The position numbers and the translations under genes are program-made. A stretch of 64,000 nucleotides of DNA, from NCBI GenBank assembly GCA_028818795.1, contig JAPPND010000231.1, positions 4,892 through 68,891 on the forward strand, written 5' to 3'. Origin of the DNA: Gammaproteobacteria bacterium (GTDB lineage Bacteria; Pseudomonadota; Gammaproteobacteria; Pseudomonadales; Azotimanducaceae). Shown here in pieces: positions 16,515-25,513 of the stretch. Under the pieces are notes generated by a model that saw nothing but the letters and a program-made list of their open reading frames with translations, was not told the DNA's origin and searched no databases. Each line of letters begins with the position of its first letter. Positions within the stretch are counted from its first letter, which is position 1.

Positions 16515-17947
16515 GCGCGGCTGAGGTCTGGGCACTGGCGCCCTATCTCGCGCTAGCCGGTGGCATCGCGCTCTTGCTGCTCGCCGTCGCCGCGTTGCGC
16601 TCGCACCGCCTCGCGTTCTGGGGCGCCATCGCCACGTTGGCGATCCCGCTGGCGTTCGTACCGACGGTCCTGGGAGGCGGCACCCAGATCGTCGACACCG
16701 TCCTCGAAATCGACGGCTACGCCCTGTTCTTCTTCGTCCTGTTCTCGCTCGCCGCGATCGCAACCGCCGTCCTCTCGGCGCGCTATCTCGGCAGCCGCGC
16801 CACCCACCGCCAGGAGTTCTACCTGCTGCTCACCACGGCGACCCTCGGGGCCGCCGTAACCGCGGGCGCGTCGCATTTCGCGACCTTCCTGATGGGACTG
16901 GAAGTGCTGTCCATCTCGCTCTACGCGATGATCGCCTATCCCGAAGAGGGCCACCCGCCGCTCGAAGCCGCCGCCAAGTACCTCGTGCTGTCGGGCGCTG
17001 CCTCGAGCACGATGCTGTTCGGCATGGCGCTCATCTACGCCGCCTCGGGCTCGTTGGCCTTCGAGGCCGCCGGGGACATCGCCGCGGGCGAGCACAACGT
17101 CCTGGTGCTCGGCCAGGCCATGCTGCTGGTGGGCGTCTTCTTCAAGCTCTCCCTGGTGCCGTTCCACATGTGGACGCCCGATGTCTACCAAGGCGCCCCG
17201 GCACCCGTTACGGGATTCGTCGCGACGGTTTCCAAGGGCGCGGTGTTCGCGGTGCTGCTGCGCTACGCAATCGACGCCGACCTGCTCTCATCGCCCGCCG
17301 TGGGCATCGTAGTCGCGGTCATCGCCGTGCTGTCGATGGTCGTCGGCAACATCCTAGCCTTGCTCCAAACCAACCTGAAACGCCTGCTGGCATATTCGTC
17401 GATCGCCCACCTCGGCTACCTGATGATCGCCCTGGTGGTGGCCGGCACGGCGGCAGGCCAAGCCCTCGGCGTGGAGTCCGGACTCTTCTACGTTGCCGGC
17501 TACTTCCTGATGACGCTGGCCGCTTTCGGCGTGATCACGGTCCTGTCGAACGAAACCGAGGACGCCGACCAGATCTCGGGCTACGACGGGCTACTCTGGC
17601 GTCGCCCCGTCGTCGCCGCCGTGCTCGCGGCCGCCGCGCTGGCGCTCGCCGGGATACCGCTCACCGTCGGATTCTTCGCCAAGTTCTACCTGGTGGCCGC
17701 TGGCGTCGGGAATGCGGCCTGGGGTCTCGTCTGGGCGCTCATCGTGGGCAGCGCGATCGGCATCTATTACTACCTGCGCATTGTTTTCGCCATGACGAAA
17801 CGCCCGGACGACGACCGCCCCGAAGGAGGTCGCCGGGTTCCGTGGGAGGGCTTCGTCACGGTGGCCCTGCTCGGCCTCTTGATCATCCTGCTTGGCTTGC
17901 ATCCATCCCCCTTTATTGAGTTCGTTAGGGAACTCGGTGGACCGTAG
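16511..17947 (+). CDS. nuoN: NADH-quinone oxidoreductase subunit N
   Basis: The GTG start overlaps the nuoM stop (GTGA). FFKLSLVPFHMWTPDVYQGAPAPVTGFV motif. 478 aa. Confidence 0.92.
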   Translation: MSAAEVWALAPYLALAGGIALLLLAVAALRSHRLAFWGAIATLAIPLAFVPTVLGGGTQIVDTVLEIDGYALFFFVLFSLAAIATAVLSARYLGSRATHRQEFYLLLTTATLGAAVTAGASHFATFLMGLEVLSISLYAMIAYPEEGHPPLEAAAKYLVLSGAASSTMLFGMALIYAASGSLAFEAAGDIAAGEHNVLVLGQAMLLVGVFFKLSLVPFHMWTPDVYQGAPAPVTGFVATVSKGAVFAVLLRYAIDADLLSSPAVGIVVAVIAVLSMVVGNILALLQTNLKRLLAYSSIAHLGYLMIALVVAGTAAGQALGVESGLFYVAGYFLMTLAAFGVITVLSNETEDADQISGYDGLLWRRPVVAAVLAAAALALAGIPLTVGFFAKFYLVAAGVGNAAWGLVWALIVGSAIGIYYYLRIVFAMTKRPDDDRPEGGRRVPWEGFVTVALLGLLIILLGLHPSPFIEFVRELGGP

Positions 17948-17956
17948 TATCCCAAC

Positions 17957-19024
17957 ATGAACGCCATCGACCTCTTTGCAGGCCCAGGAGGAATGAGTCA
18001 GGGTGCAGCCATGAGCGGAATCGACGTCCATACAGCGATTGACATCGACAAACACTCGGCTACGACCTACGCTCACAACCACCCAGCCACGAATCTGCTC
18101 GTCGCCGACGTTCAAGCAATCTCCACCCGCTCGATCCATGCAATACAGCGCGCTGCCCGGCCGAACGTCGTATTCGGCGGGCCTCCATGTCAGGGCTTCT
18201 CCTACTCCAATCCTAGACATCGGCGTCGCACCAATCCCAATAACTGGCTCTTCAGACACTTTCTCCGATTCGTCGAGATACTCAACCCCGACTGGGTCGT
18301 TCTAGAGAACGTTCCAGGTATCCGCGACACAGCTAACGGCTATTTCCTGGCATCCGTTATTTCCGGTCTAAGCCAACTTGGACGCAGAGTGCGCCACGGT
18401 CTATTGGATGCTGCTGACTATGGCGTACCGCAACACCGTCGACGCTATTTCATCGTAGCCCACAGACCAAACATTGATTTCACTCTCCCCGTACCGACCG
18501 TGAACGTTCACGTAACTGTCAACGAGGCGATCAGAGACCTCCCGCAGCTCCCAAACGGTAATACGATCTGCAAGAGAGAATACGGAACTTCGCCTCCGTC
18601 ACCTTACGCGAGGGGATTGAGAGGCCGCAGCAAGTTTTGCTACAACAACCTTGTGACGCGAAACAACAGCGCCGTAGTGGAACGTTATCAATTCATACCA
18701 CAGGGCGGGAACTGGACAGACATTCCCAAAGAACTGATGTCAACCTATCGAAATCTGTCTCAATGCCACACCGGAATCTACCACCGCTTACGGCCAGATG
18801 CCCCTGCAATTGTCATTGGGAATTTCAGGAAGAACATGCTAGTACACCCTTCAGCCGATAGAGGTCTTTCGATACGAGAGGCAGCTCGACTACAATCGTT
18901 TCCCGACCACTATAGATTCCACGGGTCAATTGGTTTTCAGCAACAACAGGTGAGCAACGCCGTACCTCCATTGCTCGCAAAGAGTGTCTTCGACTCTATC
19001 TCAAGGGCTCATACGACAACGTGA
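17957..19024 (+). CDS. dcm: DNA (cytosine-5)-methyltransferase
   Basis: All hallmark motifs are present: DLFAGPGGMSQG (I), GGPPCQGFS (IV), ENVPG (VI), QHRRRYF (VIII), REAARLQSFPD (IX) and NAVPPLLA (X). Confidence 0.93.
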   Translation: MNAIDLFAGPGGMSQGAAMSGIDVHTAIDIDKHSATTYAHNHPATNLLVADVQAISTRSIHAIQRAARPNVVFGGPPCQGFSYSNPRHRRRTNPNNWLFRHFLRFVEILNPDWVVLENVPGIRDTANGYFLASVISGLSQLGRRVRHGLLDAADYGVPQHRRRYFIVAHRPNIDFTLPVPTVNVHVTVNEAIRDLPQLPNGNTICKREYGTSPPSPYARGLRGRSKFCYNNLVTRNNSAVVERYQFIPQGGNWTDIPKELMSTYRNLSQCHTGIYHRLRPDAPAIVIGNFRKNMLVHPSADRGLSIREAARLQSFPDHYRFHGSIGFQQQQVSNAVPPLLAKSVFDSISRAHTTT

Positions 19025-20130
19025 CGGCTACCTCCGCACCATTAATCGAACACATCTCAGCCGACGAGAGTCAATACGGGATCAAGAGACCATCCCCTGG
19101 CGTGAACTACTACACGCGTTTCATGGGATTAAGCAACCATCTAAACAAGGAAGTCCATCCTAAAGTCAACGCCGGATCCACTGCGGCCGAGACAGTCTGG
19201 CTGACAGACCACGGTCCAGATCACATCGCCACCGTGATCGGCCGAATACATGATCTGGCATTCCAAAGCGGAGCCTATGTCGTTTCACCTTACGAAGCCT
19301 ATATCCTTGCCGTCGCGGCACATATGCACGACATTGGTAACGTATATGGACGCGAAGAGCACGAGCGTCGAGTTCGGGACATCCTATTCGGCCTCGATGA
19401 TACACTAATCGGTGACGACAATATCGAAAAGAGGATGATATGCGACATCGCCATGGCGCACGGGGGCAAGATTGGCTCCGACCCAAACGGAACGCCGGAC
19501 GCCATCGCCATGGATACAATCGGCAGAATGAGCCACGACCGACCAATTCGTAAACTAGCAGCTATTCTCCGACTCGCTGATGAACTGGCGGATGATCGGA
19601 CACGCTCGAACAAACTCGATCTCGAGGTATTGGCGGAGAACAAATCGTACAGAAGGCAGAGCGAGATTCATCATGTGTATGCACAGCGGCTACATCCGCC
19701 TGCCATCGATCACCAGACGCGGACCATTCAACTCACATTTGAATTATTGATGGAGCACGTAGTCGCCAAGTACTACAAGCGTGGCAAAGGGAGGTACCTT
19801 CTCGACGAGATATTCGAGAGGACTCTAAAGACGCACAGGGAACAAATCTACTGTAGCAGATTCATGTCCCCGGACATACTATTGGATCGCGTCGCCGTGG
19901 AAATCCTCGTCTGCACGCCAAAGTACCAAGAAGTCAGGGCACGGCTCGACTACACGCTGGAGCAGGCTTATCCTGTATACATCTGCAAAATCGCGGACGC
20001 TGTCCCCTCACTACATGGCGTATCCGGTCATGGTCTCGCCGGTACCATCGACGAGATCATGGAAGCACGCTACGACGGCTCACCGGTTGACCTGAATCCA
20101 ATTCTCTCGACGGCGGAGTATGAATCGTGA
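19021..20130 (+). CDS. HD-domain metal-dependent phosphohydrolase or nuclease-like protein
   Basis: HGPDHIATV...AAHMHDIGN...DIAMAHGG...RLADELADD gives an H..HD..H..D pattern. The GTG start overlaps the dcm stop (GTGA at 19021-19024). Confidence 0.75.
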   Translation: MTATSAPLIEHISADESQYGIKRPSPGVNYYTRFMGLSNHLNKEVHPKVNAGSTAAETVWLTDHGPDHIATVIGRIHDLAFQSGAYVVSPYEAYILAVAAHMHDIGNVYGREEHERRVRDILFGLDDTLIGDDNIEKRMICDIAMAHGGKIGSDPNGTPDAIAMDTIGRMSHDRPIRKLAAILRLADELADDRTRSNKLDLEVLAENKSYRRQSEIHHVYAQRLHPPAIDHQTRTIQLTFELLMEHVVAKYYKRGKGRYLLDEIFERTLKTHREQIYCSRFMSPDILLDRVAVEILVCTPKYQEVRARLDYTLEQAYPVYICKIADAVPSLHGVSGHGLAGTIDEIMEARYDGSPVDLNPILSTAEYES

Positions 20131-21929
20131 AAAGAAGCGGACTTCCCGACAATCCGTTTAAGGTGTTCACGCCAGAGGATCTGGATGCGAAGGAGATACT
20201 CGATCTTTTTGTGGAGGTCCCATATCTTAACAAAATTCAGGACCCGGGAAACACAATGCTAAACGGGCCTCGCGGTAGCGGTAAGAGCATGCTCTTTCGC
20301 TACCTAATGCCGGATTGTCAGATGGAGGCAAAATCGTTGGCGCTACGTGAACTCCCTTTCTTTGGTGTTCTAGTCTCCATTCGGAATACGGCCCCCAACC
20401 TCACCGAATTGCGACGGCTACCCGACCAATCTACAAGGGCTATCCTAAATGAGCACGCGCTGTCGTGCTTTGTTGCCTCCCGTTTTCTGCAGGCCCTGTT
20501 GGACTCATTGCCTGATCGCCCGCAGCCATCGTGGTCGGCCGCCTTGGCTAGCTACTACGACTACCTTGAATCCCTATTGGTACGATCCGGTCGACCGGCG
20601 ATTGGGCACGACGGGTTGGACGTTGCATCGCCCCAAGCCCTTCTGCAAGGCTGCCGAGACTTGTGTGAAGACTCTTATGCAGATGTAAATCACTATGCAA
20701 AGAGGATCTCCTTTGCCACATCCCTCCCGCCATACGATGGCGTTCTCTGTGACTACATGACTTTCCTTTGCCCACTTCTCGTTGAAGCTAGGAAACTTCC
20801 GTTCCTGCCCAACGAAGCGCCAATATACCTTCTGCTGGACGATGCCGACCATTTGAACAAGGACCAAACAATGGTCCTCAACTCCTGGCTTACCGCACGA
20901 ACTCAGGGAATGGTCAGTATCAAGATATCTACCCAACAGAACTACAAGACGTTGGCCACAGTGAGTGGGCACCTAGTTCGTTCGCCGCATGACTACCAAG
21001 AGATCAACATGTCGGATTTGTATACGACCAAACGCGGCCTCTATGAACGGAGCGTTAGGGAGATAGTTGATAGGAGGCTACGCCGAGCCAAAATCGCGTC
21101 TACAGGCGACGCGTTCTTTCCTCCCGATAGAGACCAAGAGCTTGAAATCACACAGATCGCAGAGGACCTTCGCAAAGCATGGAAGGATAGCGGAAGAGGT
21201 AATCGCCCGTCGGACGACGCCCTGCGATATGCCCGCCCAGAGTACATTCGGCGCCTCGGCGGTCCTTCTAAGTCACGCCACACCTATTTCTATGCAGGTC
21301 TCGATCAGCTCATTCACCTATCATCCGGGCAAGTACGGTACCTCTTGCAGCCCGCAGCTGAAATGTACGACGAGCAAGTCGGGCAACTGGCCGATAGTCC
21401 GATACGGGAGATCAGTCCGGGCATTCAGAATCGTGTCGTTAGGCAGGAGGCTGATAGATTGATGTTCTCGGAACTAGAGAATCTCGCAGTCAGTCCCACT
21501 GATGTCGATATTCCGTTCGACGAATACCGAGACCGCGTGGCGAAGCTGCGCAACTTGCTTGCGTTTCTTGGCGGGTTTTTCTTTCTCAAACTGGTCTCTG
21601 ACGATGCTGAAAGACGTGTCTTTTCAGTGGCCGTCTCGGGGGATCCGGACCTAGACGTGTTTGACGTCTTCGAATTCGGGGTCGTATTGGGTTACTTTCA
21701 TCGATCATCGATCGGCAATAAGGACGGAACCGGTAGAACCAGATTGTATGTGCTCACGAGGCGCTTAGCACCTCACTTCAACCTAGACCCTTCCTCCTTT
21801 AGCGGATACCAGTTCGTGACAAATGAAACACTGAGGAGCGCTATGGTTAATCCCGCTCGTACGGTGAGGGCGGTCCGGTCGAGGGTCAAACCTCGGCCTC
21901 TAGATGAGGGACAGATGGAGCTCTTTTGA
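20127..21929 (+). CDS. ORC/Cdc6-like P-loop NTPase (600 aa)
   Basis: Walker A is NGPRGSGKSMLFRYL and Walker B is IYLLLDDADHL. The GTG start overlaps the HD gene stop (GTGA at 20127-20130), with a GGAG-like SD 7 nt upstream. Confidence 0.75.
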   Translation: MKRSGLPDNPFKVFTPEDLDAKEILDLFVEVPYLNKIQDPGNTMLNGPRGSGKSMLFRYLMPDCQMEAKSLALRELPFFGVLVSIRNTAPNLTELRRLPDQSTRAILNEHALSCFVASRFLQALLDSLPDRPQPSWSAALASYYDYLESLLVRSGRPAIGHDGLDVASPQALLQGCRDLCEDSYADVNHYAKRISFATSLPPYDGVLCDYMTFLCPLLVEARKLPFLPNEAPIYLLLDDADHLNKDQTMVLNSWLTARTQGMVSIKISTQQNYKTLATVSGHLVRSPHDYQEINMSDLYTTKRGLYERSVREIVDRRLRRAKIASTGDAFFPPDRDQELEITQIAEDLRKAWKDSGRGNRPSDDALRYARPEYIRRLGGPSKSRHTYFYAGLDQLIHLSSGQVRYLLQPAAEMYDEQVGQLADSPIREISPGIQNRVVRQEADRLMFSELENLAVSPTDVDIPFDEYRDRVAKLRNLLAFLGGFFFLKLVSDDAERRVFSVAVSGDPDLDVFDVFEFGVVLGYFHRSSIGNKDGTGRTRLYVLTRRLAPHFNLDPSSFSGYQFVTNETLRSAMVNPARTVRAVRSRVKPRPLDEGQMELF

Positions 21930-22927
21930 GCATGGAAAAAGTCGATGTACTTCACGTCGACGAGTTGTCCTCTCGACAACTCGGTCAATTCGATGCGTTC
22001 GTGTGCTCAGCCAGCTACGAACGCAGATGTTTGTCTGTTCCGTGTGCACTACGAGAGGGGGAGGTACCGCTCGGCAGGACACTGGTTGTCTTCAATGGCA
22101 ACTATGAGGATGTCGTTCGCCTCAACCTCGATACGCTTCGGTCGCTATTCGTAGGCACATCGGACTGCACGATTGATACTGGTGACCCGGTGGCCACGGC
22201 GATCCACCTGCATCGAGAAATCAACGAGATCTGTACGCATGTCGGCACCCCGAGGCGTATTGGTGTTGATATAACTACGTTTACACGCGAGTCGCTCTTG
22301 ATAATGTTGAGTTGTTTGTGGCAGGTTCTTGAGCAGTCGGACGAAGTTGTTCTCTTCTATTGTAGGGCTCTCGAATACGACTCCCGGCATGAGGGAAGCG
22401 CAAAATGGCTTTCCCGGGGAATAAGGGAGGTCCGCTCAGTCATAGGATATCCAGGTAATCTCCGCCCTTCACGTCGTTCTCATCTGGTCGTTCTCGCAGG
22501 ATTCGAAGACGACCGGGCGCTCCGGCTAATTGCTGAGGTGGAACCAGCGGTCGTTTCCGTGGGTATTCCGGACGAAGCTGGTGGTCATGCTGCCGACCAC
22601 AGTGCAACTGCCGATTTGAAGATGCGTTCTATCAGGCGTGTCGTTGGCGACGTGAGGGAGTTCCGGTTCAATGCATACGACCCGTATGGGTGCTTTCGGT
22701 CAGTTGGACGGGAGGTTAAGAGAACCAGCGGGATGAATACGATTCTCGCTCCAATGAACACGAAGATCTCCACAGTCAGTGCAGGCATGTTTGCTATGGT
22801 CGAACCCGACGTGCAACTCTGCTATGCCCAAGCTGAGCTTTACAATTTGGACGCATATTCGGAGCCCGGAAAGGACGTCTACGTCTTTTGCCTACCGCTG
22901 CACGAAGGTGTGATTTCGGGGCTGTAG
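21926..22927 (+). CDS. Unknown protein with alternating beta/alpha (Rossmann-like) pattern; possible CARF-like ligand-sensing domain
   Basis: 333 aa. TTG 21926 overlaps the ATPase stop (TTGA); ATG 21932 is the alternative start. It has an FVCSAS strand end and DITTFTR (residues 115-121, nt 22268-22288). Low GC, coherent with the operon. Confidence 0.6.
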   Translation: MSMEKVDVLHVDELSSRQLGQFDAFVCSASYERRCLSVPCALREGEVPLGRTLVVFNGNYEDVVRLNLDTLRSLFVGTSDCTIDTGDPVATAIHLHREINEICTHVGTPRRIGVDITTFTRESLLIMLSCLWQVLEQSDEVVLFYCRALEYDSRHEGSAKWLSRGIREVRSVIGYPGNLRPSRRSHLVVLAGFEDDRALRLIAEVEPAVVSVGIPDEAGGHAADHSATADLKMRSIRRVVGDVREFRFNAYDPYGCFRSVGREVKRTSGMNTILAPMNTKISTVSAGMFAMVEPDVQLCYAQAELYNLDAYSEPGKDVYVFCLPLHEGVISGL

Positions 22928-23993
22928 CACCCGTACACGTCGAGGTCCGGCCTTTCGCAATTCCTGTGCGTTGCGACTTGATTGTTGTTCGCGGCAATGA
23001 CCCGTTTGCACAGTGCTTGCGCCGAGTCCTTCTCTTGCACGTCCGTCGGTCCGGGGTTTGACTTCCTCGCGCAACCCGCAAAAGGGGCGCAACCAAACTG
23101 GGTTATTCGCCTTCCCCGCATCAGCTACGCTCCAATCGTCAATGTCGGCCTGCGGTTTCGGCAGGTCATGTCTGGTCTTCACGGTCTGGCCACCACATTG
23201 AAGTCGGAAGTACATCAACGCGTTCAGAATGCTCGCGAGATCTGGTTCTCCAAGTGCGTCTCGCGCTCTGTTTTGTGCACGTCAGCAAGTCCGCTCTCAT
23301 GTGAGCATCTCTCTACTCCCGAGAACACTAACTCTACGGGATACCTACGGAGTGTCGAACTTGCGGATCGCAAAGAGGATCAGGCTGCTTCCGGGAACAG
23401 GCATGCCATCCACGCCGTCTACTTGGATGTCTCGACTGGGTCCTTCCAAGTAAGCAGTCTGATTCGCATACGCACAACATAGACAATCAGGCTGATCCGA
23501 ACGACGGCCAAGAAGGGATGACCTCGGTCACGAGCCTGCTTTAGGTACTGTAGGGCGACTACGGCACGGCGACGATAAAAAACCAGCGGGCCCCGGTCGT
23601 TCCGTTGCGGACGTCGTGCAATTGGGGCGGCAGTGGCCCGCAGGGGCGTCAGGGCAGGCCGGGGCCGTTTCAGGGCTGCGCCGGACGGCCCTCGTCGATT
23701 CGGTTGTCGGCGGGTGTCCGTCTTGCCGTTCAGTCGACGCGTCGGCGTGCGCCGGGCAGGCGTGGTTGTGCTCCATAAATGGCCGTATGCCTAGGCCTGA
23801 CGGCGGAAGGGGACACTGCGGACCCGACGACGTAACTCGTGCGTTGGAGACGTAACGTAGGTGGCACGGTTACCCTTGCCGCCCAGACCGGCATCGGTCC
23901 TCGTCTACGCTTGAATGCACGGTGATTCACCTTGCCGGACGTTGATCCTACGGTGCTAGAATCGAGAACCCCCCGAAGCCGAGGAACCGAATA

Positions 23994-25316
23994 ATGGGAC
24001 AACCCAACTGGCAGAACCGAACGCTGTTCCATGGCGACAATCTCGATTTCCTCCGCGCTATGAACTCGGAGTCGGTTGATCTGATCGCGACCGATCCACC
24101 GTTTAACAGGGGGCGCGATTTTCACGCGACTCCAGACAGCCTGGCCTCCGGCGCGAAATTCTAAGACAGATGGTCGTGGGAACAAGATGTTCACCAAGAA
24201 TGGGTGGACCAGATAACCGACGACTTCCCGAAGCTCATGGAAGCCATCGAAAGTGCTCGCTATGCTCATTCGGATGGAATGGGCGCGTTCATGTGCTTCA
24301 TGGCTGTTCGGCTGTTGGCCATGCATCGTGTGCTGAAACCCACTGGCAGCATTTATCTGCATTGTGACCCAACAGCCAGCCATTATCTAAAAGCGGTAAT
24401 GGACGCAGTGTTCGGGTGGAAGAACTTTAGAAACGAAATAGCGTGGTGCTATCGAGGAGGAGGTGTGCCACGAGACGGCTTCGGCAAAAAGCACGACCTG
24501 ATTTTTCGATACTCAAAGGGTAAGGCTGCCACCTTTAACGTTGATGCTGTTCGCATACCCTACTCGGAGGATTCGGCACAGCGCCTCAAATACAAGGCAA
24601 AAGCATTCACGTCGTCTGGCACATATGACAACTACGAACAGAATCCGAAGGGCAAGCACCCCGAGGATTGGTGGATAATGCAGCCCATAATGCCATCTGC
24701 CAAGGAACGCCTCGGGTACCCTACTCAGAAACCTCTCTCCCTATACGAGCGCATCGTCAAGGCATCTTCCAACGAAGGCGACGTCGTCCTCGATCCGTTC
24801 TGCGGATGCGCTACGACGCTCGTGGCCGCCGAACGGTTGAAGCGCCGATGGGTCGGGGTGGACATTTGGGAGAAGGCGCATGAAACGGTCATCAGACGTC
24901 TTCAACGGGAAGGACTCGAAGGACCCCGGGGAAGCGTCGGGGAAGCGCTGCCGTTCTACGGGAAAATACACTACGCTAAGGAGCCACCCGAAAGAACAGA
25001 CGACGGCGAGACGGCGGCTCCGTTCCTGCGCGTCAAGGAGAGGGTAAAGGAACCGGAGGGACCGAAATGGAGTCGTCAAGACATGTACGACCATCTCCTG
25101 AATCAGAACGGAATGAAGTGCCAAGGGTGTGATCGGGATTTCGATGATCCCAGATACTTGGAACTGGATCACAACACGCCCAGGGCTGACGGAGGAATCA
25201 ACCATATCTCCAATCGAATACTCCTATGTTCGCCCTGCAACCGGGCGAAAAGCAACGTCTTCACCCTGAGCGGATTGCGGCGTCACAACAAGAAAATGGG
25301 ATGGATGGCGAAATAG
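23994..25316 (+). pseudogene. Beta-class N4/N6 DNA methyltransferase fused to a C-terminal HNH nuclease, interrupted by an in-frame TAA (codon 57, nt 24162-24164)
   Basis: ATG 23994 gives ...DLIATDPPFN...ASGAKF-TAA-DRWSWEQD... in one frame. Downstream lie PTQKP, VLDPFCGCATT (AdoMet motif I) and the HNH region ELDHNTPRADGGINHISNRILLCSPCNRAKS. Confidence 0.7.
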
Positions 25317-25513
25317 CTAGAGACTCACTTGCAACGGGCGCTGGGATGCGTGTTCGAAACCCAGGGCGCCCAGAGTACTGCTCATCGGGTACTTCGCCAA
25401 GGCCTTCGTGGTCGCTGGCATCGGCAATGCCGCCGAGGTCCTGCCCTATGAATGCTCATCGTGCGCAACGCAATCGGACGAGGTCTGGCTGGACCGTAGT
25501 CGCCGGCCAAGCG

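Follow-up and report, generated by a model that had tools for sequence, protein, structure and literature searches.

A widespread four-gene operon linking a C5-cytosine methyltransferase to HD, ORC-CDC6-like, and CARF-like proteins: a candidate modification-based immune system

Results

Four overlapping genes in a low-GC island

We analyzed a 64,000-nucleotide stretch of DNA (hereafter, the window; contig JAPPND010000231.1) from a metagenome-assembled Gammaproteobacteria bacterium and describe here an operon of four genes on its forward strand. Gene 1 (17957-19024, +) starts with ATG and encodes a C5-cytosine DNA methyltransferase of the Dcm family, 355 amino acids (aa) long. Gene 2 (19021-20130, +; 369 aa, GTG start) encodes a metal-dependent phosphohydrolase of the HD superfamily (Pfam HD-CE), the predicted effector. 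It is followed by gene 3 (20127-21929, +; 600 aa, GTG start) for a P-loop ATPase of the Pfam family ORC-CDC6-like, a predicted DNA-binding sensor and switch. The last is gene 4 (21926-22927, +; 333 aa, TTG start) for a tandem CARF-like protein with two Rossmann-like domains, predicted to serve as a ligand sensor or as a co-regulator of the gene 3 product. Under the source locus tags (OXU77_21855 to 21865), genes 2-4 are labeled hypothetical, and RefSeq also names the three partner genes hypothetical proteins.

Read directly from the DNA, the junctions are GTGA (19021-19024), GTGA (20127-20130), and TTGA (21926-21929). An earlier note on this DNA, made from the letters alone, had described four same-strand open reading frames (ORFs) chained in this way. 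Its coordinates are exact, and the overlaps recur in 81 related loci (see below), in which all three junctions most often overlap by 4 bases and overlaps of 4, 8, or 1 bases predominate. Fixed stoichiometry, which the note took the overlaps to imply, would be a prediction of this arrangement. The gene 1/gene 2 and gene 3/gene 4 overlaps hinge on the choice of start, because the deposited NCBI proteins begin later: 27 codons downstream for gene 2 (342 aa) and two codons downstream for gene 4 (ATG at 21932, 331 aa). The long form of gene 2 is covered over 97-100% by its homologues. A weak possible operon terminator, a stem-loop and then a T-rich tail, lies 28 bp past the gene 4 stop (22955-22976, +). 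A consensus scan found 10 terminator-like sites in the region against 5.8 ± 2.5 expected, and this site is not significant on its own; promoters and terminators together showed no excess over the shuffled expectation.

The GC content is 53.1-53.7% in each of the four genes, compared with 65.2% in the preceding nuoL/M/N genes and 64.6% in the whole window. At third codon positions, it is 57-60% in the four genes against 91%. The stretch at 18-26 kb is the sole low-GC island of the window, and gene 1 starts 9 bp downstream of the nuoN stop. The earlier note had put the operon at 40-50% GC, which was too low, but the contrast with the flanks that it had pointed out is real (53% versus 65%). The operon, which we regard as horizontally acquired, forms a low-GC island in a 65% GC genome.

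The four predicted proteins

The gene 1 protein matches the Pfam family DNA_methylase (PF00145) over model positions 1-323 of 324 (E = 3.9e-56, 191.3 bits; cut-off 22) and TIGR00675 (6.5e-44, 150.9 bits; cut-off 100.65). It also matches the PADLOC profile MTase_II at 2.3e-106, as well as the DruM and DrmMII profiles. Motifs I, IV, VI, VIII, IX, and X are all present in the translation (DLFAGPGG, GGPPCQGFS, LENVPG, QHRRR, REAARLQSFPD, and SNAVPP, respectively). This is the best conserved of the four proteins, with a mean identity to the window copy of 50% across 71 cassette homologues, compared with 41% for gene 3, 34% for gene 2, and 32% for gene 4. The target-recognition region (approximately residues 165-300) is conserved to the same degree as the catalytic core, which argues for a single 5-methylcytosine (5mC) specificity throughout the family. 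The target itself is not inferable from the PDB relatives (3g7u, DNMT1, M.HaeIII, and M.HhaI), as these align over the catalytic core and motifs IX-X only. The Vsr mismatch endonuclease is the usual companion of active 5mC methylases. We suggest that the gene 1 methylase matters to the operon and is probably active, because it is the best conserved of the four, its target-recognition region is kept, Vsr is encoded in 20 of 84 related loci, and the single locus reduced to genes 3 and 4 adjoins the 5mC-dependent McrBC.

The gene 2 protein matches Pfam HD-CE (PF24391; 5.7e-24, 85.7 bits; cut-off 27). Across 52 homologues, the invariant residues are H46, D63-H64, H68, H103-D104, H114, H147, and D187-E188, and these include the complete set of metal ligands of the H...HD...H...D type (H68, H103-D104, H147, and D187). 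The AlphaFold2 model, with a predicted local distance difference test score (pLDDT) of 90.9, has a helical core at residues 30-223 and a small C-terminal alpha/beta domain. Foldseek aligned it with a probability of 1.0, at E-values of approximately 1e-3 or worse, to the HD-type domains of Ppx/GppA, followed by phosphodiesterases and SAMHD1. The sequence also reaches the Pfam family Ppx-GppA_III at 0.0033. No PADLOC profile matched gene 2.

Nearly the full length of the gene 3 protein (residues 9-561) matches Pfam ORC-CDC6-like (PF24389; 4.2e-95, 320 bits; cut-off 27) over model positions 1-569 of 571. The match to AAA_16 (2e-5, 25.6 bits) is under that family's cut-off of 32.6. The Walker A (GPRGSGKS) and Walker B (LLLDDADHL) motifs are present, and G47, R49, G50, G52-K53-S54, and D238-D239 are invariant in 32 homologues; a C-terminal block at residues 521-560 is also strongly conserved. 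The protein has homologues in more than 1137 clusters at 90% identity. A profile of the 32 homologues found P-loop matches only among PDB sequences (E > 0.03), and matches in PADLOC were likewise at the P-loop level (E ≥ 0.007). Searched by sequence against solved structures, the profiles of genes 2, 3, and 4 returned only artefactual matches (designed repeat proteins and P-loops).

The window copy of gene 4 has no Pfam match. It matches the PADLOC CARF6 profile PDLC01917 at 3.9e-72 (residues 13-323, model positions 8-302 of 308), and nine more CARF6 profiles match as well. Weak matches to PF19810 (HFX_2341_N) occur in six of 52 homologues, and HFX_2341 is a Csa3a-like regulator (PMC11434293). 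The AlphaFold2 model (pLDDT 94.0, predicted template modeling score 0.93) consists of two tandem alpha/beta Rossmann-like domains. Its Foldseek matches are the CARF domains of Cam1 (8t66), TtCsm6 (8jbb/5fsh), and Csa3 (2wte), with probabilities of 0.97-1.0 and E-values of 3e-4 to 2e-3, and S-adenosylmethionine (SAM) methyltransferases score equally. An hhalign comparison matches one half of the protein to the other (E = 5.4e-5, probability 67%), and the conserved loops of the two halves coincide. The invariant residues of both domains fall within the loops that follow strands 1 and 4, the usual place of ligand binding in CARF and Rossmann domains. In the first domain, strand 111-115 leads into D115-I-T117-T-F-T-R121, with an invariant D115, a T117 conserved to at least 90%, and R121 as the consensus at its position; N278-T279-K280 occupies the equivalent place in the second domain. 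This D-x-T-x-x-x-R fits the signature [DN]x[ST]xxx[RK] after strand 4 given in the 2014 description of CARF. The gene 4 product is therefore modeled, with moderate support, as a single-chain pseudo-dimer of CARF-like domains. At E ≤ 1e-30, the family is represented by 518 of the clusters built at 50% identity. Longer members, inspected for telling fusions, were uninformative (an HATPase_c tail, TPR repeats, and an ATPase-gene 4 chimera).

Three of these identifications had been anticipated in the earlier note. Its complete C5-cytosine methyltransferase is borne out by the full-length PF00145 match and the presence of every motif that it named. The HD signature that it saw in gene 2 agrees with the PF24391 match, the invariant ligands, and the HD-type fold on which the model and Foldseek concur (E ~1e-3), and its guess of an ORC/Cdc6-like P-loop protein for gene 3 coincides with PF24389. 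It had found no assignable family for gene 4, which the CARF6 match refutes.

The four genes travel together across more than 15 phyla

When a single genome of each species was scanned, 148 relatives of gene 3 were confirmed, and 80 loci were retained. After other look-ups were added and duplicates removed, 81 non-redundant loci remained; the clustering of ORFs into recurrent neighbors covered 84 loci. The order gene 1-gene 2-gene 3-gene 4 is found in 62 of the 81 loci, and in 11 more a Dcm of the same family (E ~1e-97 to 1e-119) lies directly after gene 4. This brings the cassettes with a Dcm to 73, and most of the rest are cut by contig ends; two loci, L025 and L031, are without a Dcm despite having sequence on both sides. 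The HD-ATPase-CARF-like trio is thus nearly always accompanied by one specific Dcm family, among restriction-modification (R-M), Abi, and toxin-antitoxin genes, in line with the methylation-linked defense system that the earlier note had proposed.

The carriers belong to more than 15 phyla, including Pseudomonadota, Bacteroidota, Acidobacteriota, Planctomycetota, Verrucomicrobiota, Gemmatimonadota, and Nitrospirota, and further Armatimonadota, Deinococcota, Latescibacterota, Omnitrophota, Elusimicrobiota, Patescibacteria, Bacillota, and others. The homologues are 25-58% identical to the proteins of the window, and the pairwise identities of the four proteins co-vary across loci (Spearman 0.50-0.67). 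The shared order across phyla, the overlapping junctions, and these correlated identities support the four genes being one co-inherited unit. Four of 72,556 plasmid records carry the cassette, one of them beside repBC. One partial match was found in phages, and genes 2-4 had no PHROG match.

Neighboring genes in related loci include type I hsdRMS, SLFN/AlbA_2, and Fic (L005), type III Res/Mod (L003), an MmeI-like enzyme with transposases (L001), and Eco57I-like giants with an SNF2 helicase and antitoxins (L088 and L089). AbiEii and Tn3 (L087), three tyrosine integrases with an AAA_21 ATPase (L092), and IS1595 and IS110 (L091) were also found. The R-M genes around the cassette are of types I, IIG, and III. 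Several copies are decaying: the IS1595 of L091 borders a truncated Dcm, L024 has a split HD gene, HD is uncalled in L088 and gene 4 in L089, and other loci have frameshifts. Such decay is typical of defense islands. No synthase of cyclic oligonucleotides (Cas10 or CD-NTase) was present among the recurrent neighbors of the 84 loci.

Both Dcm-less loci adjoin modification-dependent nucleases. In L025 (8931-15101), the HD-ATPase-gene 4 trio adjoins an ERCC4/PD-(D/E)xK nuclease and GmrSD, and in L031 (5543-8316; 9607-12995), genes 3 and 4 alone adjoin McrBC, a 5mC-dependent restriction system.

A thymidylate synthase is an optional fifth gene of the cassette, and the window has none. ORF clustering turned up just three recurrent additions to the cassette, Vsr and ThyX among them. 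ThyX was found in eight loci, usually directly after gene 4 and often overlapping its stop, and later look-ups added two more (L005, L010, L029, L033, L045, L050, L084, L086, L090, and L091 in total). These loci come from several phyla and often have Vsr beside ThyX. The non-homologous ThyA occurs in L083 (8155-8949), a locus without HD, and has a 4-bp overlap with the start of Dcm. In nine loci, a single Dcm copy of the same family is common to the trio and a second module, whose partner proteins are completely different from the trio; that second operon is absent from the window.

The remainder of the island in the window

The same low-GC island holds a second methylase at 23994-25316 (+), an N6/N4 DNA methyltransferase (PF01555, 2e-46) whose C-terminus is an HNH nuclease (PF01844, 2.3e-10). 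A single in-frame TAA (24162-24164) parts its N-terminus, with the DPPF motif, from the rest, which restarts at GTG 24204; the gene is a nonsense pseudogene or contains a sequencing error. This fusion is not part of the conserved cassette at other loci. Between it and gene 4, approximately 1 kb (22928-23993) has no ORF with a family match. Positions 23500-23999 are at 64% GC inside an island otherwise at 53-57%, possibly a host-like or decayed fragment.

A degenerate relic of the NuoN C-terminus (GYFAKAFVVAGIGNAAEV; 25360-25500) corresponds to the intact NuoN end at 17664-17948 (GFFAKFYLVAAGVGNAAWG), with approximately 75% nucleotide identity over approximately 100 bp as judged by eye from the alignment. 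On the right, the 7.5-kb island is bounded by this relic, and the left edge lies 9 bp after the intact nuoN stop. This arrangement, a relic at the right edge and the intact gene at the left, suggests that the island entered the 3' end of nuoN by insertion or recombination, and transcription of the nuo operon may read through into it. No integrase or tRNA lies within the window, and Rfam and tRNA scans of it found nothing.

Discussion

The identities of the four genes, their intact catalytic residues, the conservation of the cassette, its linkage to one Dcm family, and its defense-island and mobile context are established here. We consider it moderately probable that the operon is a horizontally acquired, R-M-like immune system of a conserved but unnamed type. 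Methylation-based discrimination between self and non-self is proposed because of the linkage to a single Dcm family, the companion Vsr, a single Dcm that apparently serves two modules, and the defense-island setting. We infer each functional step, from methylation in vivo and the sensed target to the HD substrate and a protection phenotype. The gene 1 enzyme would mark the host DNA as self by methylating C5 of cytosine within a fixed short sequence. The gene 3 ATPase and the gene 4 pseudo-dimer may form an ATP-dependent sensor and switch that engages DNA without this mark, in which gene 4 would bind a small nucleotide-like ligand or merely co-regulate the ATPase. The HD phosphohydrolase would be the effector freed by the switch, most probably a nuclease acting on unmodified invading DNA.

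Several observations weigh against this interpretation. The usual restriction nuclease folds (PD-(D/E)xK, HNH, and PLD) were not recognized in the operon proteins, and the nearest folds to gene 2, at weak E-values (~1e-3), are hydrolases of nucleotides or polyphosphate (Ppx/GppA, phosphodiesterases, and SAMHD1). The assignment of gene 3 to the ORC/Cdc6 clade follows the name of its Pfam family, and a sequence search found it no PDB relative. CARF-like sensors normally go with a nucleotide second messenger, yet the recurrent neighbors include no cyclase or synthase. R-M specificities normally diversify, and a conserved one is unusual for such systems. The recurrent thymidylate synthases (at least 10 loci with ThyX and one with ThyA) are also unaccounted for by a simple restriction model.

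The CARF-like fold of gene 4, with its conserved residues in the ligand-binding loops, and the resemblance of gene 2 to Ppx/GppA domain III (including the Ppx-GppA_III match at 0.0033), phosphodiesterases, and SAMHD1 would also suit nucleotide-centered abortive infection. Gene 4 would then sense a second messenger made elsewhere or a pyrimidine-pool metabolite and, with gene 3, activate the HD protein, not as a DNA nuclease but as a hydrolase of (d)NTPs, (d)NMPs, or signal nucleotides, starving or arresting replication, while the methylase would license or modulate the response. The coupling of ThyX to gene 4 and of ThyA to Dcm points in this direction, toward deoxythymidine monophosphate (dTMP) and the pyrimidine pool. 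We nevertheless regard this account, the main rival, as rather unlikely. It leaves unexplained the most conserved gene, a Dcm of one family in 73 of 81 loci; the neighborhood has no conserved messenger synthase, the structural matches of gene 2 are weak (E ≥ 1e-3), and ThyX occurs in only about 12% of loci and not in the window. Hydrolysis of nucleotides and restriction are not mutually exclusive.

A non-immune module of a mobile element, in which an ORC-like initiator or partition ATPase with accessory proteins uses the methylase as an addiction or regulatory factor, seems very unlikely to us. The family name of gene 3 refers to replication initiators, and horizontal movement is evident from the low-GC island and from the insertion sequence (IS) elements and integrases near related copies. 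However, the four plasmid records, even with one beside repBC, and the single partial phage match (with no PHROG hit) leave the cassette overwhelmingly chromosomal, and the conserved HD hydrolase fits the turnover of defense genes, as do the many copies decayed by IS insertion and frameshifts. Chance adjacency of an ordinary orphan or type II methylase to three unrelated hypothetical genes is extremely improbable. Gene 1 taken alone does resemble any type II m5C methylase, as its MTase_II, DruM, and DrmMII matches illustrate, but the same order is found in 62 loci of more than 15 phyla, with overlapping codons and co-varying divergence. The identities of 25-58% to the window copy exclude one recently spread element as the source of this pattern.

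Returning to modification-based immunity, the operon could represent a distinct form of it, to which we assign a low probability. Here, a SAVED-like pair of CARF domains without a messenger synthase would partner an ORC/Cdc6-type ATPase, with one fixed 5mC specificity and a tie to dTMP or the pyrimidine pool. The tie is proposed because the optional ThyX or ThyA and Vsr are built into the operon. Gene 4 would in this case sense a nucleotide metabolite and not a cyclic oligoadenylate, and the HD protein may act on nucleotides or on DNA with or without modified pyrimidines.

The earlier note had called the system undescribed and unlike any named one. This stands for the system, as no PADLOC 2.0.0 system model fits gene 2 or gene 3, but not for the families, since PF24391, PF24389, and CARF6 are already curated. 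The HD-CE, ORC-CDC6-like, and CARF6 families have therefore been noted computationally before. Their association probably has been as well, because PF24389 and PF24391 are neighboring accessions and PADLOC carries CARF6. Our literature search, which did not reach the 2020 CARF classification or the 2015 survey of nucleotide-centric conflict systems, found no publication describing the cassette.

If validated, the operon would be a widespread, phylum-crossing addition to the methylation-based defenses (R-M, BREX, DISARM, and MANTIS), with a relative carried by at least 148 species genomes. It would bring a new list of parts (a 5mC methylase, an HD effector, a compact ORC/Cdc6-like ATPase, and a CARF-like pseudo-dimer) and would give CARF domains a role beyond cyclic-oligonucleotide signaling. 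As a four-gene system of approximately 5 kb, it suits the study of how ORC/Cdc6-type ATPases read the modification state of DNA. It also raises the question of why a thymidylate synthase is recruited into an immune operon.

Comparison with known systems suggests that the operon resembles modification-based restriction in its operation and is built from different parts. With type II R-M, including its Vsr (in approximately one quarter of related loci), it shares a stand-alone m5C methyltransferase. It differs in having no PD-(D/E)xK, HNH, or GIY-YIG endonuclease and instead three other conserved proteins, one of them an NTPase, and in a target-recognition region that does not diversify across phyla. 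We rejected a type II assignment, as genes 2-4 contain no restriction endonuclease-type family, and a type IV (methyl-dependent) one, which would be suicidal beside the operon's own Dcm. In addition to its CARF6 profile matches and its D-x-T-x-x-x-R signature, gene 4 has a likeness in fold to the CARF sensors Csm6, Csa3, and Cam1 that is weak by E-value, with SAM methyltransferases scoring as well, and its internal duplication resembles the two-lobed SAVED domain, a fused CARF pair. Unlike in type III CRISPR and CBASS, gene 4 stands alone with no fused effector, no synthase is nearby, and there is no CRISPR link; a type III accessory module was rejected, given that the 84 loci contain no cas genes or cyclase.

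BREX (through BrxC; PMC12839542) and SspABCD-SspE (through SspC; PMC10853773) are modification-based defenses with an ATPase of the ORC/Cdc6 clade that is thought to scaffold or scan DNA. PglZ, BrxA/B/L, PglX, and the Ssp/Dnd proteins are not in the operon, in which the mark would be 5mC and gene 3, missed by the PADLOC models, is half the size of BrxC. BREX, MANTIS, DISARM, and Druantia II were rejected as assignments, with the generic DruM and DrmMII methylase profiles on gene 1 as the only matches; the signature proteins of these systems (PglZ and BrxC, DUF499 and DUF1156, DrmA/B, and DruE) were not found, and neither the Gao_RL nor the BREX models of PADLOC match genes 2-4. Among tested systems, MANTIS/Gao_RL (type 2, DUF499-centered and BREX-related) is the closest precedent, although it shares no protein family with the operon. 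Its mark is N6-adenine, made by a DUF1156 enzyme, compared with 5mC by a Dcm-type enzyme with its own target-recognition domain; its ATPase is DUF499, compared with the 600-aa PF24389 protein; its DUF3870 partner contrasts with the tandem CARF-like protein; and its effector is a PLD nuclease fused to a superfamily 2 helicase in place of an HD hydrolase. MANTIS provides the best experimentally grounded model of how genes 3 and 4 might couple modification to restriction.

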